A stretch of 64,000 nt of DNA from an uncultured Chitinophaga sp. (GTDB lineage Bacteria > Bacteroidota > Bacteroidia > NS11-12g > UBA9320): the NCBI GenBank assembly GCA_964617955.1, contig CAZTXB010000007.1, positions 89,085 through 153,084 of the forward strand, given 5' to 3'. The notes beneath the pieces are model-generated. The model was not told the DNA's origin. It ran no database searches and saw nothing but the letters and a program-made list of their open reading frames with translations. Positions within the stretch are counted from its first letter, which is position 1; every line of letters starts with the position of its first letter. The position numbers and the translations under genes were made by a program. Shown one piece after another: positions 8,683 to 62,128 of this stretch.

Positions 8683-9399
8683 CCGTCGGTTAAAACCGAC
8701 GGCAATGGATGTTTCAAGCATAAAGCATTTATTGTCGTTCAGCCAGTCGCCATTACTTACAAAAATTAATCTCTATAAAATCTACTCCTCCTCCATTGCC
8801 GTCGGTTTTAACCGACGGTAAGAATTTAATTCAAAAAAACTCCAGCTGGAAAATTTCCTATCACTAAAGGATATTGAGTAAAAATGATTTTTACTTAGTT
8901 TGACGCTTTCCGTCGGTTAAAACCGACGGCAATGGATAGAATTTTAAACCGACGGCAAGGGATAGAATTTGAAACTGAAGGCAAGGGATGTTGCAAGCAT
9001 GAGGAATTTATTGTCGTTCAGGCAGATGTCTTTACATACAAAAATTAATATCTTTAAAATCCACCTCTCCTCCATTGCCGTCGGTTTTAACCGACGGTAA
9101 GAATTTAATTCAAAAAAACTCCAGCTGGAAATTTCCTATCACTAAAGGATATTGACTAGAAACAGCTTTTACTTATTTTGACGCTTTCCGTCGGTTAAAA
9201 CCGACGGCAATGGATAGAATTTAAAACCAACGGCAAGGGATACTTCAAGCATAAGGAATTTCTTGGTGTTCAGGCAGTCGCCATTTTCAACAAAAATTAG
9301 TCTCTACAAAATCCACCCCTCTCCATTGCCGTCGGTTTTAACCGACGGTAAGAATTTAATTCAAAAAAACTCCAGCCGGAAAATTTCCTATCACTAAAG
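8683..9399. repeat. BIME-like array: six 27-bp palindromic REP-like units in alternating orientation, forming three tandem modules
   Basis: CCGTCGGTTAAAACCGACGGCAATGGA at 8683, 8910, 9188; its exact reverse complement at 8792, 9071, 9322; homologous linkers between them. Confidence 0.9.
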
Positions 9400-11389: not shown

Positions 11390-12874
11390 ATGGAATCAAA
11401 AATAACAATCGAGGAAATCCAGAATTTTAAAGGCAAATACCCAAAGCAGCTTTGGCCACTCTTTATGGTGGAGATGTGGGAAAGGTTTTGCTTTTATGGC
11501 ATGCGTGGCGTTTTGGCCTTCTTTATGGTGGATCAACTCTTGCTCCAAGACGAAGCCGCTAACCTGCAATATGGTGCCATTCAGGCTTTCGTTTACGCGT
11601 TTACGTTTATCGGAGGAATTTTCGCCGATAAGATTCTTGGTTTCAGGCGCTCATTATTCTTTGGTGGCACGGTGATGATTTTAGGAAATTTACTCATTGC
11701 CTTTGCCCCTACTGAGATGTTTTACTACGGCATTGCATTTTCAATTATAGGTACCGGTTTTTTCAAGCCAAATATTTCTTCCATGGTGGGTGAACTCTAC
11801 CATGAGAAAGACCCTCGAAGGGATGCAGGTTATGGTATGTTTTATGCGGGCATCAATGTTGGAGGGCTTTTGGGAGGTGCTTTGTGCATTTATCTCGGAA
11901 AGTACCACTCCTGGAGCTATTGTTTTTTAGCTGCGGCTTTCGTTATGTTGATAGGCTTATTGACCTTTTTGTTTACCTATAAGCAATTGGGCAGCATTGG
12001 CGATTCGCCCTTGGCAAAACAAAGTTCAGGGCAGCGGATAAGCAAAGAAATCATGGTGTATGTAGGCTCACTTTTAAGCATTCCCTTGATTTTTATCATG
12101 GTAAAAAACACCCAATACACCGATTATTTCATGTACAGCATTGGACTTATTGCCCTGGTTTATTTTATTTATGAAGTTATCCGGCTAAAATTAATCGGAC
12201 TTCAAGAGAAAATGATGGCGGCCTTTACCTTTATTTTCTTTTATTTTTTATTCAACGCCATCTTCGAACAAAGCGGGGGTTCTTTGTCCTTGTTTGCGAA
12301 AGACAATTTAAGCTCCACCCTCTTGTTTTTCAATATCGACCCCAATGTGGTGAACAACAGCTCCAATTCATTGTTCGTTATCATATTTAGTCCTTTGATA
12401 GGCTTGCTTTGGCTTTGGTTGGCAAAGAAAAAAATTGAGCCCAACACCCTCATCAAGTTCGGAATTGGTTTCCTGCTCTTATCAGCTTCCTTTTATCTGT
12501 TTTACTACACCAGATTCTTTGCCTCGGCTGAAGGTATAGCCTCTTTGAATGTCTTTACACTTGCCTATCTTGTGACCACTTTAGGTGAACTTTGTTTAGG
12601 CCCCATTGGCATGTCCATCATCACGAAACTTTCACCTAAAAAACTTTTTGGCATGATGATGGGTCTTTGGTTTTTGGCTTCTGCTTTTGGGCAGTTTGCG
12701 GCCGGAAAACTGGGTGCTGAAATTTCAAAGTCCAATACAGGAACTACCTTAGCCTCTAAGTTACAATCCTATACCGATGGTTACTATCAATTGGCCATTT
12801 ATGCTCTTATAGCGGGAGTTTCCCTTATCGCGGTTTCACCATTGATAAGGAAATGGATGCAGGATGTGAAATAG
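11390..12874 (+). CDS. POT/PTR2 proton-dependent oligopeptide MFS transporter (second paralog)
   Basis: EMWERFCFYGM, GGIFADKILG, GFFKPNIS, FYAGINVG, ELCLGPIG. Confidence 0.93.
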   Translation: MESKITIEEIQNFKGKYPKQLWPLFMVEMWERFCFYGMRGVLAFFMVDQLLLQDEAANLQYGAIQAFVYAFTFIGGIFADKILGFRRSLFFGGTVMILGNLLIAFAPTEMFYYGIAFSIIGTGFFKPNISSMVGELYHEKDPRRDAGYGMFYAGINVGGLLGGALCIYLGKYHSWSYCFLAAAFVMLIGLLTFLFTYKQLGSIGDSPLAKQSSGQRISKEIMVYVGSLLSIPLIFIMVKNTQYTDYFMYSIGLIALVYFIYEVIRLKLIGLQEKMMAAFTFIFFYFLFNAIFEQSGGSLSLFAKDNLSSTLLFFNIDPNVVNNSSNSLFVIIFSPLIGLLWLWLAKKKIEPNTLIKFGIGFLLLSASFYLFYYTRFFASAEGIASLNVFTLAYLVTTLGELCLGPIGMSIITKLSPKKLFGMMMGLWFLASAFGQFAAGKLGAEISKSNTGTTLASKLQSYTDGYYQLAIYALIAGVSLIAVSPLIRKWMQDVK

Positions 12875-12876
12875 TC

Positions 12877-13020
12877 GCTGAAGACCGGGGGGATTGTAAT
12901 TTAGGTAAATTGAAGAACAAAAATTTCGACTATTGCTTCTGTCCAATTGGTATGACATCACCAGCGAAATTTTGAAGTATGCCTTACGGTTGCATTCTGG
13001 GTTGGTCCCCGGCTTCTGGC
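12877..13020 (+). ncRNA. Candidate rod-shaped structured RNA or hairpin element (unassigned)
   Basis: Nested stems: GAAG(A)CCGGGG/CCCCGGCTTC, GATTGTAAT/GTTGCATTC, AGGTA/TGCCT, AAAATTTCG/CGAAATTTT, TGTC/GACA. G-U pairs favour the + strand. Confidence 0.25.
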
Positions 13021-13160
13021 AATCTCCTATTCTGCCTGTCATAATTTTGAGTTTAAGACAGTATGATTATGGTTGAAACTCAAAAGTTCAAAAATTAATC
13101 CTCTAAATCAGATACTTCATTTATTAAACCAAAAAATTTCTCATTTTATGTTAGAAAAAC

Positions 13161-13204
13161 TTGACGAATTGCGTCTAATGAGTAAATTTGCTACTCAATA
13201 CTCA
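13161..13204 (+). promoter_or_regulatory. Bacteroidota promoter (-33 TTG, -7 TAAATTTG) overlapped by inverted repeat TGAGTA-N7-TACTCA (putative operator)
   Basis: TTG 13161-63, 19-nt spacer, TAAATTTG 13183-90; TGAGTA 13179-84 / TACTCA 13192-97, with a further TACTCA at 13199-204. Confidence 0.7.
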
Positions 13205-13206
13205 CG

Positions 13207-13737
13207 ATGCTCGATTCTCTCGTTTCTTCTAAAACAAAAATCAAACTTCTCTTGAAGTTCTTTTTGAATGCGAGTAACACCGGATACCTTCGAAACCTCG
13301 AATCAGAATTTGGCGAAAGCACCAATGCTATCCGACTGGAACTCAACAAATTCGAAGATTCCGGATTGCTCAACTCCTACTTTGAGAGCAATAAAAAAAT
13401 CTTTAAAGCCAATCCGAAACATCCGCTTTTTCCCGAAATAAGTTCCATCATACGAAAGTATGTAGGCATCGACCACATCATCGACCATGTGGTATCGCAG
13501 CTTGGAGAGCCCGACAAAGTTTGGTTGGTAGGCAATTTGGCCAAAGGACTCGACTCGGAAATCATTGATCTTAAAATCAGCGGACAGGTGAACCAAAATT
13601 ACCTTAAAGAATTGATTACCAAAGTTGAAAAGAACATCCACCGAAAATTAAATATTATTTTACTCAATGTGGATGAAACGTGTATAATGGAGCAAAGCAG
13701 AGAACCATCTTTGTTGCTCTGGAGTAAGGGCCTGTAA
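13207..13737 (+). CDS. Winged-HTH (ArsR-like) regulator fused to a degenerate minimal nucleotidyltransferase-like domain
   Basis: SKTKIKLLLKFF...GYLRNLESEFGESTNAIRLELNKFE...GLL...N..HPLFPEI; C-terminal VWLVGNLAKGLDSEIIDLKISG resembles the MNT GS...DxD region. Confidence 0.75.
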   Translation: MLDSLVSSKTKIKLLLKFFLNASNTGYLRNLESEFGESTNAIRLELNKFEDSGLLNSYFESNKKIFKANPKHPLFPEISSIIRKYVGIDHIIDHVVSQLGEPDKVWLVGNLAKGLDSEIIDLKISGQVNQNYLKELITKVEKNIHRKLNIILLNVDETCIMEQSREPSLLLWSKGL

Positions 13738-13827
13738 AGGCAGTGTAATGCGTGATAATTAGAACTTGGGGATGGGACTGAGGTGGCGAAGCTTTGGAGA
13801 AATATGAAATCTTATAGCTGTCGAAAT

Positions 13828-13870
13828 AAGGGTAAGGTAAAAAGGTTAAAAGAGAAAGGTTAAAGGTTAA
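13828..13870 (+). repeat. Purine-rich 7-mer arm (AAGGTTA/AAAGAGA) upstream of four-helix gene 1
   Basis: AAGGGTA AGGTAAA AAGGTTA AAAGAGA AAGGTTA AAGGTTA; complementary to the 14303-14365 array. Confidence 0.7.
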
Positions 13871-13904
13871 TGTAGAATTCGGATAGCCATCACAAAAAGG
13901 AGAA

Positions 13905-14265
13905 ATGAGTGGTTTTGATAAAAATGAACTGCAAAAAAGATTGTTTCAATTTGCCCTGAATGTCATCATGTTAATTCGAAAGTTACCAAAAGGAAAAGAA
14001 TACGATGTGATGAGTTACCAATTGATTAAGTCGTCAACCTCTGCCGGCGCAAATTATGAAGAAGCCCAGGGGGGCGATTTCAAAGGCAGAATTCTCAGCT
14101 AAAGTAGGAATATCCCTTAAAGAGATGAGAGAATCTAATTACTGGATTAAATTAATAATTGAAATCACCAAAAACCCTCACGATTGGCTTTCTCTTAAAC
14201 AAGAATCCTTCGAACTGATGAATATCTTAGGAAGCATCTATTCAAAAACTTCCATAAAAAGATAA
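13905..14265 (+). pseudogene. Four-helix-bundle protein (23S rRNA IVP/TIGR02436/Avd-like), frameshifted at a G6 run
   Basis: ORFs 13905-14102 and 14056-14265 join into one protein (...QLIKSSTSAGANYEEAQGAISKAEFSAKVGISLKEMRESNYWIKLI...) if one G is removed from 14069-14074. Confidence 0.85.
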
Positions 14266-14302
14266 TTTATTTTTACACCCTTTTTCCAATAGCAATAGAA
14301 AT

Positions 14303-14365
14303 TACCCTTTAACCTTTCTCCTTTAACCTTTAACCTTTCTCCTTTAACCTTTCTCCTTTCTCCTT
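14303..14365 (+). repeat. Pyrimidine-rich 7-mer array (TAACCTT/TCTCCTT, 9 units) abutting the upxY start
   Basis: TACCCTT TAACCTT TCTCCTT TAACCTT TAACCTT TCTCCTT TAACCTT TCTCCTT TCTCCTT; TTG start at 14370. Confidence 0.95.
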
Positions 14366-14369
14366 TCCC

Positions 14370-14858
14370 TTGAAACACTGGTATGCCGTATATACCCACT
14401 CCCGACACGAAAAAAAGGTAGCCGGACTTTTCGGGACGAAAGGATTGGAGCACTATCTCCCTTTACACAAGGTGCGCAAGCAGTGGAGCGACCGTAAAAA
14501 AACCGTCGAAGAACCCCTCTTTCGATCCTATGTCTTTGTGAGAGTGGATGAAATGGAAAAAGAAACCGTACGGCGGACCACAGGCGTTTTGAACTTCGTT
14601 TACTGGTTAGGACAACCGGCCGTTATTCAGGATAATGAAATTGAGGTTATTCGAAGGTTCACAGGTGAATATGAAAACCTTGTGGTACAGAATATTAGTG
14701 TAGAACTTCATTCCCAGATAAAAATAGATTCCGGCCCTCTCATGAATCAAGTTGGGAAAGTGGTGAAGGTAAGCAAGAACAAGGTCAAAGTACTCATCGA
14801 ATCGCTCGGCTGCTATTTAATAGCCGAACTGCCAACAGATAAAATAGTACATTTGTGA
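14370..14858 (+). CDS. upxY: UpxY-family (NusG paralog) transcription antiterminator
   Basis: WYAVYT..RHEKKV, QWSDRKKTVEEPLFRSYVFV, PAVI...EI..I, KOW-like IDSGPL; sits at the head of a polysaccharide operon. Confidence 0.92.
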   Translation: MKHWYAVYTHSRHEKKVAGLFGTKGLEHYLPLHKVRKQWSDRKKTVEEPLFRSYVFVRVDEMEKETVRRTTGVLNFVYWLGQPAVIQDNEIEVIRRFTGEYENLVVQNISVELHSQIKIDSGPLMNQVGKVVKVSKNKVKVLIESLGCYLIAELPTDKIVHL

Positions 14859-14873
14859 CCCAGAAAACACATC

Positions 14874-15620
14874 ATGAAAACAGTTAAGGGCAAGTTGCTC
14901 CTCATTTTGATTCCGCTGCTAGCAGCCTCCTGCGGAAAAAAACTGATTTACTTTCAGGAGAAGGAGGATTCAAAAAACAAATACAGCCATATTGAAGTTG
15001 CCAAACCCGAAAACCCCAGGGATCATATTATTGAAGCGGGGGACGTTTTGGGGTTGAAGATTAACAGCCTGAACAAAGAGATAAGCGAGAGTTTTTCAAA
15101 GTATTTGTCAAATACCTCCAACATTCCTGGCTTGTTGGTGCAAGAAAACGGGACCATATTTCTTCCTTACGTTGGAAGTCTTAGTATTTCAGGTCAGTCC
15201 ATTGGCAACGCCGAAAGTCTCATTTTATCTGAATTACAAAAATCGGTGAATAACCTCTCTCTTGAGTTAAGCTTAAATTCATTCAGGGTGACCTTGCTTG
15301 GAGAAGTAAAATCTCCTGGCATCAAAAACTCTCCGGGTGATAGAATGACCATTTTGGATGCCCTTAGCCTTGGAGGCGATCTAGGGAATGACGCGAAAAG
15401 AAGCAACATTAAAGTAATCAGACAAACAGGGGTAACGAAAACCACCTACTTTATCGACCTTTCAAATTTGGATGCGTTCAAATCAGAGGTTTATTATCTA
15501 AAATCCAATGATATTCTTTATGTAGAAACCTTGCCAAGGCGATTCTTTAGAGAAAATCTTACATATGTGAGTATATTGCTTACCGTAGTTAACACCCTTG
15601 TGATCTTTATTAGGCTTTGA
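14874..15620 (+). CDS. wza: Wza-like polysaccharide export lipoprotein
   Basis: Lipobox LAASC; IEAGDVL, GTIFLPYVG, VTLLGEVKSPG, TILDALSLGGD, LKSNDILYV. Confidence 0.9.
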   Translation: MKTVKGKLLLILIPLLAASCGKKLIYFQEKEDSKNKYSHIEVAKPENPRDHIIEAGDVLGLKINSLNKEISESFSKYLSNTSNIPGLLVQENGTIFLPYVGSLSISGQSIGNAESLILSELQKSVNNLSLELSLNSFRVTLLGEVKSPGIKNSPGDRMTILDALSLGGDLGNDAKRSNIKVIRQTGVTKTTYFIDLSNLDAFKSEVYYLKSNDILYVETLPRRFFRENLTYVSILLTVVNTLVIFIRL

Positions 15621-15637
15621 CATTTTGAAGACAAAAC

Positions 15638-18094
15638 ATGGAAAATAATACCCCAATAGAGGAAATTAAACCTGTCAGAGGGATAAACATTAAACTAATC
15701 TTGGGCCTAGCCAAAGCCTACTGGGTATTGTTCACCATATGTCTTGTTATCGCCGTTTTTGATGCCTATCTCGCCATCAGATACTCCACTCCGGTTTATA
15801 AGGTAGAAGGTGACATTTTACTGAGCAACCAAAGCAAGGGCAAAGAGGGTGCTGAAATTCTAGGTACACAGGGGCTTTCTGAGGCTTTTAATCCTTACGA
15901 CCCAACCTTGATCAATGATAAAATTGAAGTCATAAAATCAAAAAAATTCATTCTTGATGTCGTAAAAACCCTAAGATTTGACCATACCTTTTACATGAAA
16001 GGCAACGTAAAAACATCAGAGCTCTACGCGAAGGAGTTGCCAATTGAATTTTATTACCGCACTTTGAATAGATTGGCTTATGGTTATCAATTTGAAATTA
16101 AGCCAAATCAAACTGATTTCGCACTCAAAGTTTCGTTGGACAATGCTGTACTTTTTTCAAAGCAGAAGCTCGCTTATGCCGATTCTATAGTTTTGGAAAA
16201 TTGTGTCGTAATCATTCATAATAAAAATAATCAAAATCTATGGGCCAATATTCCATCATCTAATTTTACAATTGTTTTAAACGATATCGAAGCCATTGCG
16301 CTTGGGTATGCCGGGCAACTCAACGTCAAAAGGAAACCTCAAACCAAAATATTAACTCTTTCCATGGAAGCCAGTCAGGCCAATCAAGCCAGGGACTTTA
16401 TAGCTGAAGTGTCCAATAGTTTTCTCCTTAAAGGATTGGTTGAAAAAAACGAGAAATACAATTCCACTTTAAAATTCATTAACGAACAATTAGAAAAAGT
16501 GGAACAGGTTCTAGGTGACCATGAGTTTAATTTGGAAAATTTCAAAAAAAATAGCGGTATCATGGATTGGCCAGCCGAAAGTTCAATTTTAGTGGAGGAA
16601 AAATCAGGTCTTGAAAATAAGCTAGCCGAGCAGGAAATATTACTAAAAAAAGTGATCGCACTTAGAGAATACGTTGAATTGCATCAAAACCTTTCCAGTT
16701 TGGCCCCTGCCACTTTCGGAATATCTGACCCATTACTGCTGCCCCTGATTCTGGAGGTGAGCAAAGCCAGCTCTGAATTAAACGAATTTGGATATGATTT
16801 TAATCAAAATTCTCCTCTCTATAAAAAAGCAAAACAAAACCTGATAGAAGCTAAAAAATTATTGCTTGAGAACATTAACAGTATTGTTTCAAGCACCACC
16901 GAACTATTAAAGGTTTATCAAGCTGCTTTGTCAAAACTCGAGTCGAGGGTGAATCAATTGCCAAGAATTGAGCGTCAAGGGCTGGGAATGATGCGTAAGT
17001 CATCTATACAAGAAAAACTCTATCTTTTGCTTTTGGAAAAGAAATTCGAATATGAAATTGCCCGATCTGGCAATAAAAGTGATTATTCAATCTTAAATCA
17101 AGCTGAGATAAAAGGTCAAACCAGACCAAATAAGAAAAACATTTATATAGTCGCTATATTCTTAGGGTTATTGATTCCATCACTTTATATCTTCCTGAAA
17201 ATATTTTTTGACAATAAAATCAGAAGTAGAGAGCAAATTGAGAAAATGACCAAAATTCCATTTTTAGCGGCCATCCCTCATAATTCGGGCGAAGGACAAC
17301 TGGTTTTCAAAGAAAACTCCAAATCCATGATGGCCGAATCCTTCCGAAACCTTCGCACCAATATTTTGTTTATGCTCAAGGCTAAACAAGACTCGCAGGT
17401 AATTTTGGTCACTTCATCCATCAGTGGTGAGGGCAAAACCTTTTGCACGCTTAACATTGCTCAAGCCATCTCTATCTCAGGTGCCTCGGTTGTGATTATA
17501 GGACTCGATTTAAGGAAGCCACGTCTTCACTTGAGTTTCGATATCAAAAACGATATAGGGGTGAGTAATTACCTCACTCATTTGGCCACCCTGGATCAAA
17601 TCATACAAAAAACCAACTTGCCCAACATCGATATCATTCCTTCCGGCCCGGTGCCTCCAAATCCATCAGAATTGATTTTGAGCCAACAGATGAAAGACCT
17701 AATGGCTGAGCTCCGCCGTCGTTACCAATATATTTTACTCGACACAGCCCCGCTGGGATTGGTAACCGATGCGGTAGAACTCATGAAAGATACCGACCTT
17801 AATATTTTTGTGATGCGTGAGGCCTATACCATGAACAGCGCAGTGCCTTTTGTGAACGAGTTCTATGAAATCCAAAAAATCAAGAACCTTGGCATCGTTC
17901 TCAATGACTCACACAATGCCGGGGCTAAATATGGATACGGTTATGGCTATGGATATGGTTATGGATATGGATATGGATATGGTTACGGGTATGGTTATGG
18001 ATATGGATACGGGTATGGATACTACGATGACGAAAGTAGAAGCAAAAAAAGCAGTTCACTTTTATCCAAAATTATAAATGTGTTGAGGAAATAG
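15638..18094 (+). CDS. wzc: Wzc-like polysaccharide co-polymerase / BY tyrosine kinase
   Basis: Two TM segments; ESFRNLRTN; Walker A SGEGKT; DLRKP; GPVPPNPSELI; DTAP; C-terminal Tyr cluster. Confidence 0.95.
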   Translation: MENNTPIEEIKPVRGINIKLILGLAKAYWVLFTICLVIAVFDAYLAIRYSTPVYKVEGDILLSNQSKGKEGAEILGTQGLSEAFNPYDPTLINDKIEVIKSKKFILDVVKTLRFDHTFYMKGNVKTSELYAKELPIEFYYRTLNRLAYGYQFEIKPNQTDFALKVSLDNAVLFSKQKLAYADSIVLENCVVIIHNKNNQNLWANIPSSNFTIVLNDIEAIALGYAGQLNVKRKPQTKILTLSMEASQANQARDFIAEVSNSFLLKGLVEKNEKYNSTLKFINEQLEKVEQVLGDHEFNLENFKKNSGIMDWPAESSILVEEKSGLENKLAEQEILLKKVIALREYVELHQNLSSLAPATFGISDPLLLPLILEVSKASSELNEFGYDFNQNSPLYKKAKQNLIEAKKLLLENINSIVSSTTELLKVYQAALSKLESRVNQLPRIERQGLGMMRKSSIQEKLYLLLLEKKFEYEIARSGNKSDYSILNQAEIKGQTRPNKKNIYIVAIFLGLLIPSLYIFLKIFFDNKIRSREQIEKMTKIPFLAAIPHNSGEGQLVFKENSKSMMAESFRNLRTNILFMLKAKQDSQVILVTSSISGEGKTFCTLNIAQAISISGASVVIIGLDLRKPRLHLSFDIKNDIGVSNYLTHLATLDQIIQKTNLPNIDIIPSGPVPPNPSELILSQQMKDLMAELRRRYQYILLDTAPLGLVTDAVELMKDTDLNIFVMREAYTMNSAVPFVNEFYEIQKIKNLGIVLNDSHNAGAKYGYGYGYGYGYGYGYGYGYGYGYGYGYGYGYYDDESRSKKSSSLLSKIINVLRK
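17930..18025 (+). repeat. (TAY GGN)15 TAC TAC coding repeat = (YG)15YY
   Basis: Direct codon count; third positions vary synonymously. Confidence 0.95.
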
Positions 18095-18098
18095 GGAT

Positions 18099-18140
18099 AA
18101 GGTTGAGGTTAAGGTTGAGGTTGAGGTTAAGGCTAAGATA
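18099..18140 (+). repeat. Purine-rich 6-mer arm (AAGGTT/GAGGTT) upstream of four-helix gene 2
   Basis: AAGGTT GAGGTT AAGGTT GAGGTT GAGGTT AAGGCT AAGATA, starting 4 nt after the wzc stop. Confidence 0.9.
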
Positions 18141-18145
18141 AGAGA

Positions 18146-18502
18146 GTGACCTATTTAAGCTTTGAAGATATGCCTGTGTGGAAGTTAGCAATGGAAATAG
18201 CAGTAGAAGTATTTAACCTTACGGTTCCGCTTCCAAAAAGTGAAGATTACGCATTGACAAGTCAAATTCGCCGCTCTGCAGAATCGATTTCGTCTAATAT
18301 ATCTGAAGGTTTTGGAAGAAGTACATCACCTGATAAAAAGAAATTCTATGTAATTTCAAGAGGGAGTTTATATGAAACAAAAAATCACCTCATTTATGGC
18401 CATAAAGTTAATTATTTTGATACAGCCGAAATAGAACCCATTTATAAAAAAATAGAGACTGTTATTCACGAATTAAATAAATTAATAAAATCGCTTAATT
18501 AA
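18146..18502 (+). CDS. Four-helix-bundle protein (23S rRNA IVP/TIGR02436/Avd-like)
   Basis: SFEDMPVWK.AME, LPKSEDYALTSQIRRSAESISSNISEGFGR, F.VISRGSLYET. Confidence 0.92.
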   Translation: MTYLSFEDMPVWKLAMEIAVEVFNLTVPLPKSEDYALTSQIRRSAESISSNISEGFGRSTSPDKKKFYVISRGSLYETKNHLIYGHKVNYFDTAEIEPIYKKIETVIHELNKLIKSLN

Positions 18503-18651
18503 GGTTAAGGCTAAGGTTAAGGTTAAGGCTAAGGTTAAGGCGAAGGTTAAGGCGAAGGTTAAGACTAAGGCTGCTTATTGACGCAAACCTCAACCTCAAC
18601 CTCAACCTCAATCTCAACCTCAACCTCAACCTCAACCTCAACCTCATCCTC
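18501..18651 (+). repeat. Inverted 6-mer arrays: (AAGGYT-like)12 - GCTTATTGACGCA - (AACCTC-like)11
   Basis: Left array 18501-18572, spacer 18573-18585, right array 18586-18651; next ATG at 18669. Confidence 0.95.
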
Positions 18652-18668
18652 AAGCACATCCACAATAA

Positions 18669-19919
18669 ATGACTAAAAAAATCGCCATCATCGGTTTAGG
18701 TTACGTTGGCTTGCCATTGGCCGTTGAGTTTGGAAAAAAATTCTCAACCCTGGGATTCGATATCGATAAAAGGCGGATAGAAGATTTAAATCACGGGCTC
18801 GACAAAACCTTGGAAATGACCCAAGCTCAAATTTCAGAATCGACTTTTCTCACCTTTTCTTCCGATAGCCTTAGCCTCAAGGATTGTCAAATTTTTGTTG
18901 TTACAGTACCTACACCGGTGGATGCCAACAACCGCCCCAACCTCAACCCCTTGTATAAGGCCAGCGAAACCGTTGGAAAAGCCTTAAAAAAAGGCGATAT
19001 TGTGATTTATGAATCAACGGTTTACCCGGGAGTTACCGAAGACGAATGTGTCCCCGTTTTAGAAAAAACATCCGGATTAAAATTCAATGTCGATTTTTTC
19101 TGCGGATATTCACCGGAAAGAATTAACCCCGGGGATAAAGAACATACGGTGACTAAGATACTAAAGGTTACTTCGGGTTCTACTGATGAAATTGCTGAAG
19201 AGGTAGATCAACTCTATCAATCCATCATTACAGCCGGTACCCATAAGGCGCCTAGCATTAAAGTGGCCGAAGCAGCCAAGGTCATCGAAAATTCTCAGCG
19301 CGACATCAACATCGCCTTTGTGAATGAGCTGGCCAAAATATTTAACCTCATGGGCATTGATACACATCAGGTTTTGGAAGCAGCAGGCACCAAATGGAAT
19401 TTTCTAAAGTTTAAACCGGGCTTGGTCGGTGGCCATTGCATTGGCGTTGACCCCTTTTACCTGGCCCAAAAATCACAGGAATTGGGCTATCATCCCGAAA
19501 TTATATTGGGTGGTCGAAGGCTCAACGACAGCATGGGCTCCTATGTAGCGGAGCAAGTGGTCAAACTCATGGTAAAAAAAGACATTGCCGTAAAAGACGC
19601 CAAATGCCTCATCCTTGGGTTTACCTTTAAAGAAAACTGCCCCGATGTAAGAAACACCAGGGTGATTGACATCATAAACGAGCTTAAATCCTATTCGGTA
19701 CAACCCATCATTTACGACCCCTGGGCCAGCATCGAGGAAGTTAAACACGAATATGGTATTGAAATTCACAATACCTTACCACAAGGCAAATTTGAAGCAA
19801 CAATATTGGCCGTTGCACATAATGAATTCAAAGAACTACCTCTTAATAAATCAAAAGATAATGTGCTTTATGATGTTAAGGGAATATTGCCTTTGGATCT
19901 GGTGGATGCGCGGCTTTAA
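18669..19919 (+). CDS. UDP-N-acetylhexosamine 6-dehydrogenase (TviB/WbpO/WbpA-like)
   Basis: [57 protein letters not shown]. Confidence 0.93.
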
Positions 19920-19979
19920 GGTAGAAGAGTTAAAAGTAGAGAAGGAGAATAGCTTTTCTACTTTTTACTCCTCTATCCT
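19919..19979 (+). repeat. Imperfect inverted repeat built from AAGTAGA-like / TCTACTT-like units upstream of four-helix gene 3
   Basis: AGGTAGAAGAGTTAAAAGTAGAG ... TTCTACTTTTTACTCCTCTATCCT. Confidence 0.75.
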
Positions 19980-20009
19980 GAAGAACTTATAAAAACAAAT
20001 TAACAAACC

Positions 20010-20426
20010 ATGACTTACAGAATTTATTCCTTTGAAAAACTAGAGGTTTATAAGAAGGCAAGAGAATTGAGAAAAGAATTCAACGTTTTAACTAAAACTT
20101 ATCCCAAAGATGAACTTTATGGGTTAATTAGCCAGATTCGGAGAGTAGCTTGCAGCCTGACAGCAAATTTAGCGGAAGGGTCGGGAAGGGAGACTAATAT
20201 TGACAAAGCTAAATTTACAAATATTAGTTATTCCAGTTGTTTAGAATTAATAGATCATTTAAACGCTTCACTTGATCTGGATTATATCAACGAAAAACTA
20301 CATGAAGAGTTTAGATTAAAAATCGACCCAATGGTTTCGGGATTAAACGCTCTTTATAAGTATCAATTAAATGAAGAAGTGAGTTTGAAAAACAAAATGG
20401 AGAACGGAATAAAAGCAGTAAAGTAG
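20010..20426 (+). CDS. Four-helix-bundle protein (23S rRNA IVP/TIGR02436/Avd-like)
   Basis: YSFEKLEVYK, YPKDELYGLISQIRRVACSLTANLAEGSGR, F..ISYSS..E. Confidence 0.92.
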   Translation: MTYRIYSFEKLEVYKKARELRKEFNVLTKTYPKDELYGLISQIRRVACSLTANLAEGSGRETNIDKAKFTNISYSSCLELIDHLNASLDLDYINEKLHEEFRLKIDPMVSGLNALYKYQLNEEVSLKNKMENGIKAVK

Positions 20427-20446
20427 AATCTCTCTACTTTTCTACC
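20420..20446 (+). repeat. AAAGTAGA-ATCTC-TCTACTTT-TCTACC hairpin downstream of four-helix gene 3
   Basis: Same unit as the 19919-19979 element; includes the TAG stop. Confidence 0.65.
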
Positions 20447-20474
20447 AAAATTACTGGTCTACCTAATAACACAA

Positions 20475-21425
20475 ATGAAAATTCTAGTAACCGGCGGCGC
20501 AGGATTCATAGGCTCCAACCTCACAGAGGGATTACTTGCAGATGAGAGGGTTACTTTCGTCAGGGTATTGGATAACTTGGCAACGGGGCATTTAAGAAAT
20601 CTGGAGACTTTCACCTCACATCCAAAATTTGAATTTCAGCAAGGAGACATACGAAATCCGGACGATTGTGCTAAAGCTTGTCGAGGGATTACGGCAATCA
20701 GTCATCAGGCTGCTTTGGGAAGTGTACCCCGAAGCATCAACGACCCTCATACAACCCACAAGGTGAATGTCGACGGTTTTTTTAACATGTTGGATGCTGC
20801 AAGACTCAATGGAATCAAACGCTTCGTTTATGCCTCCTCTTCCAGTGTATATGGCGATGCCGATTACTCGCCTAAAGTGGAAGACAGATTGGGAAGCCCT
20901 CTATCCCCTTATGCTGTTACAAAAAAAACGAATGAGTTGTATGCCAATGTCTTTTACACAACCTATGGCATGGAAGTGATTGGTTTAAGGTACTTTAATG
21001 TGTTTGGTCCCAAACAGGATCCAAACGGGGCTTATGCAGCCGTTATTCCTTTATTTTTTAAAGCCGCATTAAATAATGAATCTCCTGTTATTAATGGAGA
21101 TGGAACCATAACCCGTGACTTTACTTTTATTGACAATGTGGTAAACATAAATATTTCTGCCCTGACGCTATCTAACCCGGAAGCCTATGGAAAAGCCTAT
21201 AATGTGGCATGCGGAGAAACCACTACCTTAACCCAAATTTGGGAAACCATAAAAAGAATATCCCAAAGCAATGCCGATGCCATCTATGGCGAGCAGCGAA
21301 AGGGAGACATCCTGCAAAGCTTAGCAGATATAAGGCTGGCCATAAAATATTTAAACTATTCCCACTCTGTTGATGTAATACACGGATTGGAAAAAAGCTT
21401 GGAGTGGTATAAGAAAATAGGTTAA
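20475..21425 (+). CDS. UDP-GlcNAc(A) C4-epimerase, WbpP/TviC-like SDR
   Basis: TGGAGFIGS, HQAALGSVPRS, YASSSSVYGD, SPYAVTK, LRYFNVFGP..DPNGAYAAVIP. Confidence 0.92.
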   Translation: MKILVTGGAGFIGSNLTEGLLADERVTFVRVLDNLATGHLRNLETFTSHPKFEFQQGDIRNPDDCAKACRGITAISHQAALGSVPRSINDPHTTHKVNVDGFFNMLDAARLNGIKRFVYASSSSVYGDADYSPKVEDRLGSPLSPYAVTKKTNELYANVFYTTYGMEVIGLRYFNVFGPKQDPNGAYAAVIPLFFKAALNNESPVINGDGTITRDFTFIDNVVNINISALTLSNPEAYGKAYNVACGETTTLTQIWETIKRISQSNADAIYGEQRKGDILQSLADIRLAIKYLNYSHSVDVIHGLEKSLEWYKKIG

Positions 21426-21543
21426 GGCTGAGGCTAAGGTTGCCTTCGGACGTGAGCATTGAATATTGAACATTGCTTATTGAACATTAAAAAAGGTTAA
21501 GGCTTAGATTAAGATTGCCTTCGGACGACAAAACCTCAATCTC
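21419..21543 (+). repeat. Composite repeat region: AAGGYT 6-mers, ATTGAAC 7-mers, duplicated TTGCCTTCGGACG, AACCTC 6-mers
   Basis: 13-mer at 21440 and 21515; 7-mers 21458-21488; 6-mers 21419-21441, 21493-21516 and 21532-21543. Confidence 0.85.
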
Positions 21544-21566
21544 ATTAAAACTAATAATTTTTGCAC

Positions 21567-21574
21567 TATCTTTG
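21567..21574 (+). promoter_or_regulatory. Candidate -7 promoter element for the TA pair
   Basis: TATCTTTG matches TAnnTTTG, 17 nt before ATG 21592; no clear -33 element. Confidence 0.45.
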
Positions 21575-21591
21575 ATTAAAATTATACTCCA

Positions 21592-21831
21592 ATGTTAACA
21601 TTAAATACTATACTTAAAGAGATTAAAGATGTTCCGGTTAACAGGCTGGAAGAACTTTATCAATTTATACATTCGATGACCCCCCCAATAAAACAAACCG
21701 AAGGTTTACGAAAAAAAATTCTTTCGTATGGAGGTGCTTTTAGCGACATGAGTAACCAAGACTATTCTGATTATATCGGTCAAACAAAAAAAACAAGGTC
21801 AAACCTCTTTGACCGTAATATTGACCTATAA
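21592..21831 (+). CDS. Putative antitoxin (small protein upstream of PIN toxin)
   Basis: 79 aa, directly upstream of VapC; IKDVP..RLEELYQFI...GAFSDM pattern typical of small VapC partners. Confidence 0.65.
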   Translation: MLTLNTILKEIKDVPVNRLEELYQFIHSMTPPIKQTEGLRKKILSYGGAFSDMSNQDYSDYIGQTKKTRSNLFDRNIDL

Positions 21832-21869
21832 ATACTCCTTTTCTGAATAAACCTTAATCATTAAAATAA

Positions 21870-22277
21870 GTGATTAAACAATCCATACTTGACACTGATA
21901 TTCTGTCCGAATTTTTGCGGGGCAATCCCAAGGTTATTGCTAAAGTTGACGAACATCTAAAAGAGTATGGCTTTATTAATCTTAGCATCATCACATATTA
22001 TGAAATTCTCAACGGTCTACTATTTAAAGACGCTGGAAAACAGTTAATAAAATTTGAAGAATTTACAGAACTAAACAAAGTCATTCCACTTACATTACCA
22101 ATGGCTAAAACCGCAGCTTTAATACAGGCGGAATTAAGAAAGAAAGGAACAGAAATAGGACATACAGATACGCTGATAGCTGGAATTGCAATTACAAGTG
22201 AACTGCAATTGGTAACAAATAATACGAAACATTTCAAACGTATCAAAGGACTTGAAATTGATAATTGGACTAAGTAA
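21870..22277 (+). CDS. vapC: VapC-family PIN-domain toxin
   Basis: ILDTDILS, SIITYYEI..G, IGHTDTLIAGIA, LVTNNTKHFKRIKGLEIDNW. Confidence 0.93.
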   Translation: MIKQSILDTDILSEFLRGNPKVIAKVDEHLKEYGFINLSIITYYEILNGLLFKDAGKQLIKFEEFTELNKVIPLTLPMAKTAALIQAELRKKGTEIGHTDTLIAGIAITSELQLVTNNTKHFKRIKGLEIDNWTK

Positions 22278-22297
22278 ACTTATTTCTGAAAGGCCAA

Positions 22298-22328
22298 ATT
22301 GAACATTGAAAATTGAGGATTGAACATT
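22298..22328 (+). repeat. ATTGAAC-type 7-mer array downstream of vapC
   Basis: ATTGAAC ATTGAAA ATTGAGG ATTGAAC ATT; same orientation as 21458-21488. Confidence 0.8.
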
Positions 22329-22436
22329 TTTTTATAACCATCCTTTGGTTCCTTTAACCTTTCTTAATGACCACCGCAATAAAAACCGAAAAAACCTCCA
22401 AAATATATCACCTTGGAGAGATAGGCACATCAACAT

Positions 22437-22768
22437 TAACCCGTGACTTTACTTTTATTGACAATGTGGTAAACATAAACATTTCTGCCCTGACGCTATC
22501 TAACCTGGAAGCCTATGGAAAAGCCTATAATGTGGCATGCGGAGAAACCACTACCTTAACCCAAATTTGGGAAACCATAAAAAGAATATCCCAAAGCAAT
22601 GCCGATGCCATCTATGGCGAGCAGCGAAAGGGAGACATCCTGCAAAGCTTAGCAGATATAACGCTTGCCATAAAATATTTAAACTATTCCCCCTCTGTTG
22701 ATGTAACTCACGGATTGGAAAAAAGTTTGGAATGGTATAAGGAAAAACGGCTAAGGTGGAAAGGTTAA
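22437..22768 (+). pseudogene. Duplicated 3' fragment of the upstream epimerase gene
   Basis: 22437-22741 matches 21109-21413 with 9 mismatches in 305 bp (manual count); lacks the NAD-binding N-terminus. Confidence 0.92.
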
Positions 22769-22922
22769 AAAAGCAGCTGAAATTATCAAAAAAATAGCCA
22801 CGAGTAATTTACAAATTTATTAGAATAACCAATTTATTAGCCTTACTCTATTGCACACTTTAACCTTTTATGGAAGCAGTTGGCTAACCACTTAACCTTA
22901 ATATTTTAACCCTTTCACCTTA
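22752..22922 (+). repeat. 19-bp imperfect inverted repeat with degenerate TAACCTT units bracketing a gene-less spacer
   Basis: TAAGGTGGAAAGGTTAAAA (22752-70) vs TTTTAACCCTTTCACCTTA (22904-22): 17/19 complementary. Confidence 0.65.
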
Positions 22923-22953
22923 CTCTTTCACAATTTCAGCACTAACCTAACAT

Positions 22954-24381
22954 TTGGATTCATCGTTTAAAAGCAACCTGGCATGGGACTATTTGAGTAA
23001 GTTTGGGAATATTATTTTCAGCCTCATTACCACTTCCATTCTAGCTCGCTTACTGAGACCTGAGGATTACGGTTTGGTTGGCATTTCGGCGGCAGTAAAT
23101 GGCATAGCCGGTATATTTTTTAATTTTGGCTTATCAAGTGCTATTATACAGTCTGACAATTTAAATAAACAAACTCTTTCAACCGTTTTTTATTTTAATC
23201 AGATTATTGCGGTTTCGCTATGGTTAGTCATACTATTTACATCTGGCCTAATAGAAAATTTTTATTCGATTGCCAACTTATCAGAAGTATTGGTATTTAC
23301 CTCATTAAGCTTTATCATCAATGGAGCAAGCATGGTGCCCAATGCATTGCTGGTAAAAGCTATGAAATTCAAGAACGTAACAATTATCAGTTTATGCTCG
23401 AATTTTATGAGTGGAATTTTAGGTATCACCCTTGCCTTGAATAATTATGGCGTTTGGAGTTTAGTTTTTCAGCAATTATTTAATTCCCTTCTCATTCTTT
23501 TAGGGAGCTATATTGTTACAAAATGGTATCCAATTTTTTACTTCAAGATAAAATCAATCCAGTCTATGTTGAGATTTGGTGTGTATATGTTTTTATCTGG
23601 TTTTTTGGATGGAATATTTACCCGGATTGATATTTTTTTAATTGGTAAAGTATTTAGTCCTTCAACTCTGGGATTATACACCAGAGCGCAAGGATTAGAT
23701 GCACAAGTGAGAATTCTGTCAGCCAATAGTTTAATGGGCGTGCTTTTTCCGGCTTTTATTAAAATTAAAAATAATTTAGAAGAATTAAAACAATTATACT
23801 ACAGATTTTTTGAGCTGGTCAGTTTCAGTTTTTGTTTATTAGGCGGGGTATTTTACATAGGCGCACATCAAATTTTCTTTTTGCTATTTGGGCCACAATG
23901 GGGTGTATCTGCTGATTATTTTCAAATATTAATCTTGGCCGGCTTTGCCTACCCTTTAAGCAGCCTTTCTCTTTCAATTATTGAAGCGCGGGGAAACAGC
24001 AAAAACTTTTTTAAACTAGAAGTGATAAAAAAAATATTAGTTCTCCCTACCTATTTTATTGCCTATCAATATGGCATCAAAGCTTATCTGGTTAGTTACC
24101 TGGCTTTTTGCATTATTGGGACCTTTATGAATGTTCTTTTTCTCACATTCGAAATACCAATAACGGTTTTAGAAACGATCAAACAATTAGGAAGATATTT
24201 TTTCAGTTCAATATTAATTGTATTGGTGTTGAATATATTTAAAGATAATTTTAGAGACAACTTGTTGAATACTTTTTTCATAACAATTACTTTCACTTTA
24301 ATATATTTTATCACACATCATTTATTTAAAAGTAAGGGTCTAATCTACGCTTTCGAGTTGGTCAAGCATAAAAAGATATGA
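22954..24381 (+). CDS. wzx: Wzx flippase (WzxC-like)
   Basis: ILARLLRPEDYGLVG, GLSSAIIQ, GVWSLVFQ, LGLYTRA, LFGPQW; multiple TM segments. Confidence 0.92.
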   Translation: MDSSFKSNLAWDYLSKFGNIIFSLITTSILARLLRPEDYGLVGISAAVNGIAGIFFNFGLSSAIIQSDNLNKQTLSTVFYFNQIIAVSLWLVILFTSGLIENFYSIANLSEVLVFTSLSFIINGASMVPNALLVKAMKFKNVTIISLCSNFMSGILGITLALNNYGVWSLVFQQLFNSLLILLGSYIVTKWYPIFYFKIKSIQSMLRFGVYMFLSGFLDGIFTRIDIFLIGKVFSPSTLGLYTRAQGLDAQVRILSANSLMGVLFPAFIKIKNNLEELKQLYYRFFELVSFSFCLLGGVFYIGAHQIFFLLFGPQWGVSADYFQILILAGFAYPLSSLSLSIIEARGNSKNFFKLEVIKKILVLPTYFIAYQYGIKAYLVSYLAFCIIGTFMNVLFLTFEIPITVLETIKQLGRYFFSSILIVLVLNIFKDNFRDNLLNTFFITITFTLIYFITHHLFKSKGLIYAFELVKHKKI

Positions 24382-25451
24382 TTACCGTCACAAAACCTTT
24401 TTTACCACCCTTTGAAGATTATCAAAAGTATCTGGAAGGAATTTGGCAACGCAATTGGTTGACAAATCATGGCCCTCTTGTACAGGAACTAGAAACTAAG
24501 TTAAAAGCCTACCTTGAGGTAGATTATTTACAGTTTACAGTTAATGGAACTATTCCATTACAAATAGCGCTTAAGGTATTGGAAATTGAAGGTGATGTAA
24601 TTACAACTCCTTTTTCTTATGTAGCAACCACAGGTGCCATTTTGTGGGAGAATTGCCAACCTGTTTTTGTAGATATTGAGCCGGATACATTTTGCATTGA
24701 CACAGATAAAATAGAGGCGGCTATCACCAACAAAACTTCAGCTATATTGGCAACGCATGTTTACGGATTTCCGTGCGATGTAATTAAAATAGAAGAGCTA
24801 GCTAAAAAACACCAGCTCAAAGTCATCTATGATGGGGCACATGCCTTTGGAGTTAAAATTAATGGAAAGAGTTTATTAGCTTATGGGGACATAAGTACCT
24901 CTAGTTTTCATGCAACAAAACTTTTTCATACCGTTGAGGGTGGTGCCATTATCTGCAATAACCTTGAGCTTAACCATAAGATTTTTCTCTACAAATCTTT
25001 TGGTCATATAGGCGATGATTATCGAAGTATAGGTATAAACGGTAAAAATTCTGAGTTTCATGCTGCTATGGGATTATGCAATTTACCGAGAGTAGGAGAA
25101 TTCATAGAACAACGTCGAGAAATTGCAAATTTATATCGATTTGAGCTTTTTGGATTACCAATAAGTTTCCCAAATATTTCAAAGAGTATTGAGTACAATT
25201 ATTCATATTTTCCAGTTTTATTTGGAAGTGAGGATCAATTATTAAAGGTTCAAAGTCATCTTCAATTGAATAATATAAATACAAGAAGGTATTTTTTTCC
25301 ATCATTGAATAAATTACCATATTTAGTTAGTACATCACATTGCCCTGTTTCAGAAAATATTTCTGAAAGGATATTATGTCTTCCTTTTTATCAGCAGCTT
25401 AGTCAAGAAGAGGTAATTTCTGTTTGTTCATTCATAAAAGAAATTTTATAA
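24378..25451 (+). CDS. DegT/DnrJ aminotransferase, VioA-like (NDP-4-amino-4,6-dideoxyglucose)
   Basis: VTKPFLPP, WLTNHGP, TTPFSYVAT, YDGAHAFG, SFHATKLFHTVEGG, GINGKNSEFHAAMGL. Confidence 0.88.
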   Translation: MITVTKPFLPPFEDYQKYLEGIWQRNWLTNHGPLVQELETKLKAYLEVDYLQFTVNGTIPLQIALKVLEIEGDVITTPFSYVATTGAILWENCQPVFVDIEPDTFCIDTDKIEAAITNKTSAILATHVYGFPCDVIKIEELAKKHQLKVIYDGAHAFGVKINGKSLLAYGDISTSSFHATKLFHTVEGGAIICNNLELNHKIFLYKSFGHIGDDYRSIGINGKNSEFHAAMGLCNLPRVGEFIEQRREIANLYRFELFGLPISFPNISKSIEYNYSYFPVLFGSEDQLLKVQSHLQLNNINTRRYFFPSLNKLPYLVSTSHCPVSENISERILCLPFYQQLSQEEVISVCSFIKEIL

Positions 25452-61910: not shown

Positions 61911-61939
61911 TATGTTTATTTAAATGTGAATACATTCCT

Positions 61940-61965
61940 TTGGCTAAAGCCAACGGCAATGGATG
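61940..61965. repeat. Degenerate solo REP-like unit related to the 8.7-9.4 kb array
   Basis: TTGGCTAAAGCCAACGGCAATGGATG vs TCGGTTAAAACCGACGGCAATGGATG; the stem changes are compensatory. Confidence 0.65.
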
Positions 61966-62063
61966 AGGCCATAACGATATATCCTTCTTCATTTCGCTAT
62001 CCAATACATTCATATTTTAAGACTTTCAATCCATGAAAATAAACCATTAAATGTTTATCGGCC

Positions 62064-62128
62064 AACCTTAACCTTAACCTTAACCTCAACCTCAACCTCA
62101 ACCTTAACCTCAACCTCAACCTCAACCT
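62064..62128 (+). repeat. (AACCTY)10 AACCT array abutting the carbamoyltransferase ATG
   Basis: AACCTT x3, AACCTC x3, AACCTT, AACCTC x3, AACCT, then ATG. Confidence 0.95.

Follow-up and report, generated by a model that had tools for sequence, protein, structure and literature searches.

Complementary tandem-repeat arms around PF05635 genes in messenger operons as candidate intervening-sequence-type cassettes

The stretch of DNA analyzed here, referred to as the window, comprises 64,000 nucleotides of an uncultured Chitinophaga sp. (contig CAZTXB010000007.1, positions 89,085 to 153,084). Between 13.8 and 22.9 kb it holds the head of a polysaccharide locus in which three genes of the PF05635/TIGR02436 family lie between operon genes. 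A sequence-only reading of this DNA had noticed tandem repeats of opposite composition, termed arms, around these genes and had likened the whole to the intervening sequences (IVSs) that are excised from 23S rRNA. Our analysis confirmed that the observation in the window is real and far from chance. The two arms match within cassettes and not between them, their polarity follows the direction of transcription, and among PF05635 genes outside rRNA the complementary-arm architecture is family-wide and crosses phyla. We rate as about even the chance that the three window genes are cargo of IVS-type cassettes in mRNA, the arms of which would pair and serve as a substrate for RNase III.

As we picture it, a cassette would consist of a promoterless PF05635 (S23p/Avd-like) open reading frame (ORF) of ~120 amino acids placed between two co-directional operon genes, with a G-rich, C-poor tandem array of 6- to 8-nt units on its 5' side, a complementary C-rich array on its 3' side and sometimes a third arm that is a direct copy. 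Arms were located with Tandem Repeats Finder (TRF) and with an inverted-repeat search, the pairs from which are numbered I1-I16. The parts of the three window cassettes are as follows.

13828..13877, + strand: cassette 1, upstream G/A-rich arm of AAGGTTA-type heptamers (TRF period 7; pair I2)
13905..14265, + strand: cassette 1, PF05635 gene, split by a +1 frameshift at a G run (~14066-14072)
14301..14366, + strand: cassette 1, downstream C-rich arm of CCTTTAA/CCTTTCT units (TRF periods 7/14/21; pairs I1-I3), shortly ahead of the NusG/UpxY-like gene
18095..18139, + strand: cassette 2, upstream arm A1, RAGGTT x7 (TRF period 6; pairs I4-I11), directly past the stop codon of the Wzc-like gene
18146..18502, + strand: cassette 2, PF05635/TIGR02436 gene, 118 aa
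18499..18570, + strand: cassette 2, G-rich arm A2, TAAGGY x12 (TRF periods 6/12/18), starting within the stop codon
18586..18653, + strand: cassette 2, C-rich arm B, AACCTC x11 (TRF period 6, 93% matches), 15 nt before the ugd start
19914..19983, + strand: cassette 3, arm hairpin, AAAGTAGA-type versus TCTACTTT-type with an 8-nt loop (pair I16), beginning in the ugd stop codon
20010..20426, + strand: cassette 3, PF05635/TIGR02436 gene, 138 aa
~20423..20445, + strand: cassette 3, short C-rich piece TCTCTACTTTTCTAC past the stop codon, a direct repeat of the 19953-19983 arm (by eye)

The arms of cassette 1 (13828-13877 versus 14316-14365) are 84% complementary over 50 nt, those of cassette 2 (18095-18139 versus 18586-18650) are 84-92% complementary over 37-43 nt, and those of cassette 3 (19914-19944 versus 19953-19983) are 81% complementary over 31 nt. 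A2 of cassette 2 is a third arm, a direct repeat of A1 on the same strand. The repeat unit differs by cassette, as the sequence-only reading had stated, from heptamers through 6-mers to the arms of cassette 3. Its description of three bracketed four-helix-bundle genes held for the genes, which are recognized by PF05635, and for the brackets of cassettes 1 and 2; in cassette 3, both arms are upstream of the gene. Likewise, the placement of the upstream arm on or directly past the previous stop codon was found in cassettes 2 and 3 and not in cassette 1, where the previous ORF ends 90 nt before. The C-rich arms of cassettes 1 and 2 stop short of the next start codon by 4-16 nt.

Profile scans identified the cargo proteins well above the curated cut-offs (33.8 bits for PF05635 and 24 bits for TIGR02436) in cassette 2 (113.8 and 110.4 bits, respectively) and cassette 3 (94.5 and 81.8 bits). 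The two half-ORFs of cassette 1 (13905-14102 and 14056-14265) scored 25.3 and 19.3 bits against the Pfam profile, each below the cut-off, and cover profile positions 3-53 and 51-104, so that jointly they span PF05635 positions 3-104. This gene is probably intact in other strains, because metagenome contigs of runs X6 and X8 have one letter fewer at 14069, inside it. The cassette 2 protein matches the Xanthomonas homologue of known structure (PDB 2GSC; E 2.4e-16). An alignment of 16 proteins contained the family motif, quoted in PMC3936711 as GxxRxxxSxxxNxxE: residues Q40, S47, N51, E54, and E77 were invariant, and the block SQIRR..S...N..EG was kept. None of four cassette proteins matched a defence-system model in PADLOC.

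The same architecture recurs in the source genome (3.04 Mb, 34 contigs), where six of seven PF05635 matches are flanked by complementary arrays, every one with a different unit. Besides the window copies, the armed copies include one between carA and eno, one at a thiolase/acyl-CoA dehydrogenase junction, and one in a rearranged array just past the window; the seventh match (23 bits, contig C13) had no flanking complementary arrays. Genomes of the same taxonomic family carry a PF05635 gene in 51 of 61 cases, often in several copies. We scored arms by aligning the 300-nt upstream flank of a gene with its 300-nt downstream flank in reverse complement, and as a null we used 870 mismatched pairs, each made of the upstream flank of one locus and the downstream flank of another. 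Among the best 30 of at least 185 family matches, 24 exceeded the 95th percentile of the mismatched pairs. A broader set, with one genome per species, consisted of the best 80 of 588 loci from Bacteroidota and many other phyla, 7 of which were dropped because of flanks shorter than 150 nt. Here 52 of 73 loci were above the 95th percentile of mismatched pairs, compared with 18 of 270 control ORFs taken from these loci; with the 99th percentile as the threshold, the counts were 26/73 and 6/270, and 3 of those 6 control ORFs adjoin a cassette. Both locus sets are biased towards proteins resembling the query. These comparisons, of the kind proposed in the sequence-only reading, rule out chance or generic AT-rich spacers as the source of the arms. 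Arms are visible in records labelled Prosthecochloris (Chlorobi), Anaerolineae (Chloroflexi), Acidobacteriota, and Omnitrophota, and also in records labelled Actinomycetota, Micavibrio, Desulfosarcina, and Peribacteria. Labels of metagenome-assembled genomes (MAGs) can err: a contig labelled Limnohabitans (L072) is probably mis-binned, since its flanking proteins share 80-87% identity with their counterparts in two Flavobacterium loci (L052 and L065).

A second, unrelated cargo family has arms of a similar kind. In a genome-wide inverted-repeat scan of the source genome, both GxxExxY (TIGR04256) genes were found with PF05635-like arms, and of 30 GxxExxY loci from the taxonomic family, 16 scored above the 95th percentile of mismatched pairs and 11 above the 99th. 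In several genomes (G042:C147, G021:C12, and G036:C155), only 1-2 kb separate GxxExxY genes from PF05635 genes or from the carA-eno site; cassette-type genes may cluster.

Several anatomical rules emerged from the pooled cassettes, from which one locus (L038, a duplicate of L010) was dropped in the pooled, neighbor, unit-length, AG, and polarity counts. Inverted arms were present in 79 of 101 and direct repeats in 22 of 101, with both in 21, which are therefore three-armed forms like cassette 2. The unit is most often a heptamer (period 7 in 55/72, period 8 in 12/72), and among 41 clear heptamer arms, 27 keep an AG dinucleotide at a fixed phase; the unit-length and AG counts exclude arms below 18 or 21 nt. 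In the upstream arm, G outnumbers C in 61 of 75 cassettes, C outnumbers G in 8, and the two are equal in 6. Both neighbors are co-directional with the cassette in 82 of 93 cases, and the median spacers of 64 and 49.5 nt are mostly occupied by the arms.

We folded the whole cassettes in silico as RNA and compared each with 100 shuffled sequences. The minimum free energy fold of cassette 1 (-131.7 kcal/mol, z -2.77) includes a long-range stem between the arms, as does that of cassette 2 between A1 and B (-152.4 kcal/mol, z -4.73); in both cases, 0 of 100 shuffles reached an equal value. Scanning window positions 13000-23500 with Rfam found no rRNA, and the arms gave chance-level matches to miRNA hairpins (E 0.22-0.5, far below gathering scores). 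Across the scanned loci, no Rfam family covers the arms, and 0 of 40 loci lie in an rRNA gene. An RNase III gene is encoded in the source genome.

Taken as mRNA elements, the cassettes would work as follows. The G-rich arm, transcribed first, would pair with the C-rich arm as the latter emerges in the polycistronic transcript, forming an imperfect 30-60-bp duplex with the ORF in its loop. This duplex would be an RNase III substrate, as in the IVSs of 23S rRNA; cleavage would release the cassette from its neighboring cistrons and define the 5' end of the message that follows. The G-first order might also shield the C-rich, G-poor array, which resembles a Rho-loading site, so that no polarity would be exerted on the downstream gene. 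In its widest form the proposal would make PF05635 and GxxExxY cassettes a pan-bacterial class of mRNA IVSs, with stems of heptamer-repeat arms at which RNase III would excise the cassette and so decide the fate of the downstream message, and a ring protein that would act on the arms to control processing or to maintain and spread the element. The rRNA IVSs would be the special case of an insertion into rRNA, and many unexplained intergenic heptamer arrays of Bacteroidota, Cyanobacteria, and others would be arms or relics of such cassettes; we regard this extension as improbable.

The evolutionary record of the cassettes bears on how they persist. The cassette proteins are under purifying selection, with dN/dS (nonsynonymous to synonymous rate ratio) of 0.03-0.21 in 11 of 12 computable orthologous pairs; broken copies also occur, including a copy on contig C4 with an in-frame TGA and copies with internal stops in several relatives. 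Near-identical cassettes (≥80% protein identity) share flanking genes in nearly all pairs. The exception is L050, the protein of which is 81-86% identical to those of L052, L065, and L072, with arms alike (TGTATAA type) and flanking genes all different. The suggestion of minimal mobile units in the sequence-only reading therefore finds one group in its favor, and most near-identical cassettes, at orthologous sites, against it. Some sites are of long residence, because they are shared by distant orders with flanks only 62-72% identical: in L058 (Cyclobacteriaceae) and L062 (a Bacteroidia MAG), a cassette lies just upstream of a thiolase-like gene. The arms of these two loci are unrelated to each other, yet each matches its own partner (scores of 34 and 31) and not the other's (crossed scores of 17 and 16), which points to concerted change of the two arms. 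The same own-partner matching was seen for L010 and L014, which occupy an orthologous site and have diverged arms.

The junction between carA and eno, compared in 11 genomes of one genus, supplied the comparison of filled and empty sites that the sequence-only reading had proposed, in the form of a presence/absence series bounded by arms. Three genomes (G000, the source genome; G042; and G039) have a PF05635 cassette, the arms of which start in the last carA codons. Three others (G027, G030, and G023) have 122-158 nt of two complementary arrays and no gene. Four are without clear arms: G016, G003, and G033 have armless short spacers, and G045 has a 142-nt spacer with possible arm remnants. The last, G036 (L119, contig G036:C155), carries a HEPN-like ORF with a nucleotidyltransferase-like ORF after it (by eye). 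Arm remnants can thus outlive the loss of their cargo. The arms of G042 and G039 have hardly diverged, although the enclosed gene is at a dS of 1.10. As a check for horizontal transfer of the cassette, this value was set beside 2.08 for eno and 1.73 for the 3' part of carA, a comparison weakened by saturation and codon bias.

Strains differ in arm length by whole units: in run X6, cassette 2 has 18 nt (3 units) more in A1 and 6 nt fewer in A2 than in the window. In contigs of X5 and X8, position 21452, in the arm past the epimerase gene, is joined directly to the AACCTC arm at 18585 before ugd. The PF05635 gene just past the window end (G000:C7:156059-157025; L032 1560-2540) sits within an array in which a 168-nt unit, composed of a C-rich arm, the last ~45 nt of the gene, and a G-rich arm, occurs about twice downstream, with a similar piece upstream; this arrangement looks like the product of recombination between arms.

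Several findings weigh against paired arms in mRNA. The gene of cassette 3 is not looped out by its arms, both of which are upstream, and 22 of 101 pooled cassettes have no arms above the threshold. The counts overstate significance, since related genomes are not independent samples. In one of the three diverged-arm pairs (L022/L026), the crossed score exceeds the own-partner scores, and solo arrays exist without any cassette to explain them. RNA pairing leads one to expect more G.U than A.C mismatches between arms, but on the sense strand of 76 cassettes we counted 58 mismatches of the G.U wobble type and 89 of the A.C/C.A type, a test that strand-biased mutation could confound; the commonest mismatch was A opposite A (68 cases). 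Nor were UNCG tetraloops enriched in the sense strand, where cUNCGg loops numbered 16, versus 30 in antisense, and cUUCGg loops 3, versus 8. The excess of cGNRAg loops in sense (52 versus 33) is confounded by purine richness.

Because the wobble and UNCG tests were negative, a mobile or homing element acting at the DNA level remains a serious rival, although we consider it unlikely. The arms would then be terminal inverted repeats made of reiterated binding sites, the cassette would move or home as DNA through the PF05635 protein, the PD-(D/E)XK-type GxxExxY protein, or host recombination, and RNA pairing would be incidental. The carA-eno series and the cassette of L050 among unshared genes fit this explanation, as do the contigs of other strains that join different genes at arms and the three-armed forms, in which recombination between the direct repeats flanking the gene could delete or insert it cleanly. 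PF05635 genes have also been reported inside cas operons and, in a preprint on bacteria of the candidate phyla radiation (CPR), in rRNA insertions. Set against these are the orthologous positions of most near-identical cassettes and the long residence of sites common to distant orders. Symmetric terminal repeats would moreover leave the strong polarity and the co-orientation with transcription unexplained. We found no recombinase gene or transposase in the window cassettes by profile scans of their ORFs and noticed no target-site duplications, without a systematic search for them. We know of no nuclease activity for PF05635.

Two further explanations were weighed. The arms may be slippage-prone microsatellites beside a long-resident small gene, kept complementary by hairpin-templated repair or conversion and devoid of function; to this we give a small chance. 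Unit-number polymorphism between strains, the many solo arrays of cassette unit types across the genome, arm units that can begin within the final carA codons, and the broken cassette genes would all be expected of such a by-product. It accounts poorly for an architecture that recurs with unrelated units across many phyla and around two cargo families, for the consistent G-first polarity, and for arm conservation beside genes with nearly saturated synonymous sites; no neutral mechanism is known by which the flanks of a gene would become reverse complements. At best a small chance attaches to the other explanation, in which the units are RNA or single-stranded DNA sites for the encoded ring oligomer, as in the trp RNA-binding attenuation protein (TRAP), and binding competes with arm pairing to tune the cassette or the next gene. 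The 2GSC structure matched by the cassette 2 protein is described as a homopentameric ring (PMC4990558), the arms are periodic with a conserved core (including the phase-fixed AG) and variable spacers, their mismatches are concentrated at A-rich spacer positions, and the arms of G042 and G039 have outlasted much synonymous change in the gene. The sequence-only reading had proposed that each oligomer binds its cognate repeat, so that repeat unit and protein clade would co-vary. Such recognition is unlikely, because protein similarity and arm similarity hardly vary together apart from close kin that share a site (Mantel r 0.083, reached by 40 of 999 permutations), arms of a similar kind surround the GxxExxY genes, whose proteins belong to a different fold, and some arms persist after their cargo is gone. 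Proteins 74-75% identical can have unrelated units. The related bAvd is reported to bind nucleic acids without sequence specificity. Paired arms within mRNA, processed by RNase III, remain the reading to which we give the most weight.

Arrays without a PF05635 gene are also present. The source genome has ~15 solo or hairpin arrays of cassette unit types, G-rich ones past stop codons and C-rich ones ahead of start codons, for example before rpsT. In light of the carA-eno series, at least some of these are suggested to be relics of lost cassettes. One is in the window, where arms and arrays also adjoin a two-gene cargo that interrupts the polysaccharide locus.

21420..21546, + strand: arms without a four-helix-bundle gene, past the epimerase gene, with a GGTTAAGG-type arm that includes the TAA stop (by eye)
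21453..21488, + strand: TGAACAT heptamer array (TRF periods 7/14), left direct repeat of a VapBC-like pair
21592..22277, + strand: two-gene cargo, a 79-aa ORF and a PIN/VapC toxin (PF01850, 42.7 bits; VapC models)
22298..22366, + strand: ATTGAAC array (TRF period 7), the right direct repeat (22298-22328), and then a CCTTTAACCTTTCTTA piece
62063..62128, + strand: orphan C-rich arm, CAACCT x11 (TRF), ending at the ATG (62129) of a carbamoyltransferase gene

The orphan arms noted earlier were borne out at 62063-62128, where the 150-nt spacer contains no arm complementary to the array; at 22752-22922, where the case was weak, TRF found no array, and reading by eye gave no more than scattered TTAACCTT-like words. 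The toxin-antitoxin pair of the sequence-only reading stands for its second gene, since 21870-22277 encodes a PIN/VapC protein, whereas the 79-aa ORF (21592-21831) matched no family in profile scans. The direct TTGAACA-type arrays around this VapBC-like pair suggest insertion or recombination at the arrays. Downstream of the pair, the CCTTTAACCTTTCTTA piece leads up to the ATG of a second, truncated epimerase copy (22367-22768), which represents the 3' end of the gene and aligns with TviC positions 222-341. The 21420-21546 segment also holds two GCCTTCGGAC loops and a small hairpin of the form A-loop-B (21493-21546). The GCCTTCGGAC loops, which contain the C-UUCG-G motif, lie at 21442-21451 and 21518-21527, at the distal end of G-rich arms; they are anecdotal, because UNCG loops are not sense-enriched family-wide.

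The cassettes and arrays lie among the following genes of the polysaccharide locus.

14370-14858: NusG/UpxY-like gene
14874-15620: Wza-like exporter
15638-18094: Wzc-like protein
18669-19919: UDP-glucose dehydrogenase (ugd)
20475-21425: NAD-dependent epimerase
22954-24381: flippase, with more genes downstream

The Wzc-like protein (GNVR and AAA_31 domains) contains a coding microsatellite, (ATATGG)x15.5 at 17929-18021, which translates into a Gly-Tyr repeat near the C terminus, probably the tyrosine cluster of the protein; many foreign contigs from metagenomes accumulate at this segment. Repeats of other kinds are found in the window and in the rest of the source genome. A 252-nt unit is present 1.8 times at 8920-9399 (G000:C7:97737-98446); it contains a 26-nt internal repeat, and several of its segments are inverted. 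Two genes assigned by eye as IS200/RAYT-like (RAYT, REP-associated tyrosine transposase), at C12:67987-68851 and C8:148952-150052, are flanked by inverted palindromes of the repetitive extragenic palindrome (REP) type, and a REP-like copy lies at window position ~61940-61965. At ~25 places dispersed over many contigs (for example, C1:150189-150429 and C15:3835-4076), there are inverted-repeat pairs of 17-18 nt that resemble miniature inverted-repeat transposable elements (MITEs), spaced ~222 nt start to start and in a few cases ~353 nt. A dispersed repeat of ~290 nt starting with GGGCCTGCTGAAAAA occurs at C9:56823-57889, C10:~50700-50870, and C13:~140-400, with two inverted copies around a minus-strand gene on C9.

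The best reading of what is new here is an IVS-type element that lives in messenger operons and occurs widely among phyla. In the full texts covered, we found nothing on complementary tandem-repeat arms flanking PF05635 genes other than in rRNA, and prior notice elsewhere is possible. Work on intergenic heptamer repeats and on PF05635 in cas loci does not connect arms and gene. The origin and purpose of rRNA IVSs are described as unexplained for decades (PMC4990558), and PF05635/TIGR02436 is a widespread family of unknown function; the arm rule gives a handle on both. The rule, a promoterless ORF with a G-rich array first and a complementary C-rich array second, in operons and across phyla, predicts the positions of RNA ends and the mutations that matter, and it indicates which alleles (empty, relic, or filled) should be compared. 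Some of the unexplained intergenic heptamer repeats in several phyla would also find their origin in it. For annotation, arrays beside small genes should not be taken as CRISPR-like repeats or assembly artefacts, and in polysaccharide loci, arms mark points at which genes are rejoined between strains.

Several known systems share features with the cassettes. In the Bacillus trp leader, TRAP binds as a ring oligomer to reiterated (G/U)AG-type triplets separated by spacers, and the phase-fixed AG of the heptamer arms is reminiscent of this; in contrast, the cassette unit does not track protein clade, and the complementary second arm has no TRAP counterpart. Integron cassettes are promoterless, co-oriented small ORFs in a row, served by an upstream promoter and each with an imperfect inverted-repeat site. 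The elements described here differ in having repeats on both sides of the ORF and in being scattered in housekeeping operons, and no integrase or attI was seen. A small gene or spacer between inverted repeats is also found in the REP systems with their mosaic elements (BIMEs) and RAYTs and in MITEs, and the source genome has both kinds. REPs, however, are identical dispersed palindromes recognized by a Y1 transposase, whereas each cassette has its own unit, microsatellite-like arms, and no transposase.

Cyanobacterial short tandemly repeated repetitive (STRR) sequences are intergenic heptamer arrays, a group to which long simple sequence repeats may be compared as well. The TAACTGA heptamer repeats reported between genes of Beggiatoaceae, Cyanobacteria, and Bacteroidetes, phyla shared with the arrays described here, often end a few bases ahead of a start codon and are oriented relative to the gene (PMC4679880). 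They are direct, with one inverted case, and that report does not mention S23, "four helix," or "intervening"; the window arrays, by comparison, form complementary pairs around a specific gene family. PF05635 is reported to be the commonest family beside the reverse transcriptases of diversity-generating retroelements (DGRs) (PMC10053308), and the DGR protein Avd has a homologous four-helix-bundle fold. The window repeats differ from those of DGRs in being tandem arrays that flank the gene. A DGR role was rejected, as 0 of 18 ORFs (11390-25451 and 60843-63853) matched a reverse-transcriptase family; template and variable repeats were not searched for.

The closest comparison is with ORF-bearing IVSs of 23S or 16S rRNA, known from Coxiella burnetii and, as the Coxiella paper names them, Leptospira, Brucella, and Xanthomonas (PMC4990558), and also from CPR bacteria. 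In the Coxiella 23S rRNA IVS, an S23p (PF05635) ORF lies in the loop of a stem, two to three tandem GACAGAT heptamers in strain-variable number precede its start, RNase III makes its 5' cut at the first heptamer, and the ORF is reportedly decaying and probably untranslated (PMC4990558). The cassettes share the PF05635 ORF, the complementary stem termini, and the 5' tandem heptamers of strain-variable copy number, an anatomy in line with the IVS-like modules of the sequence-only reading. The differences are a host transcript that is an mRNA operon, longer arm arrays, an ORF under purifying selection, and, in cassette 2, a unit of 6 nt in place of the Coxiella heptamer. Strict membership in the rRNA IVS class was rejected, because the flanking genes are protein-coding and Rfam found no rRNA in window positions 13000-23500 or the 40 loci. 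On their anatomy, the cassettes would be closely like IVSs in their working and would differ in the location that defines them.

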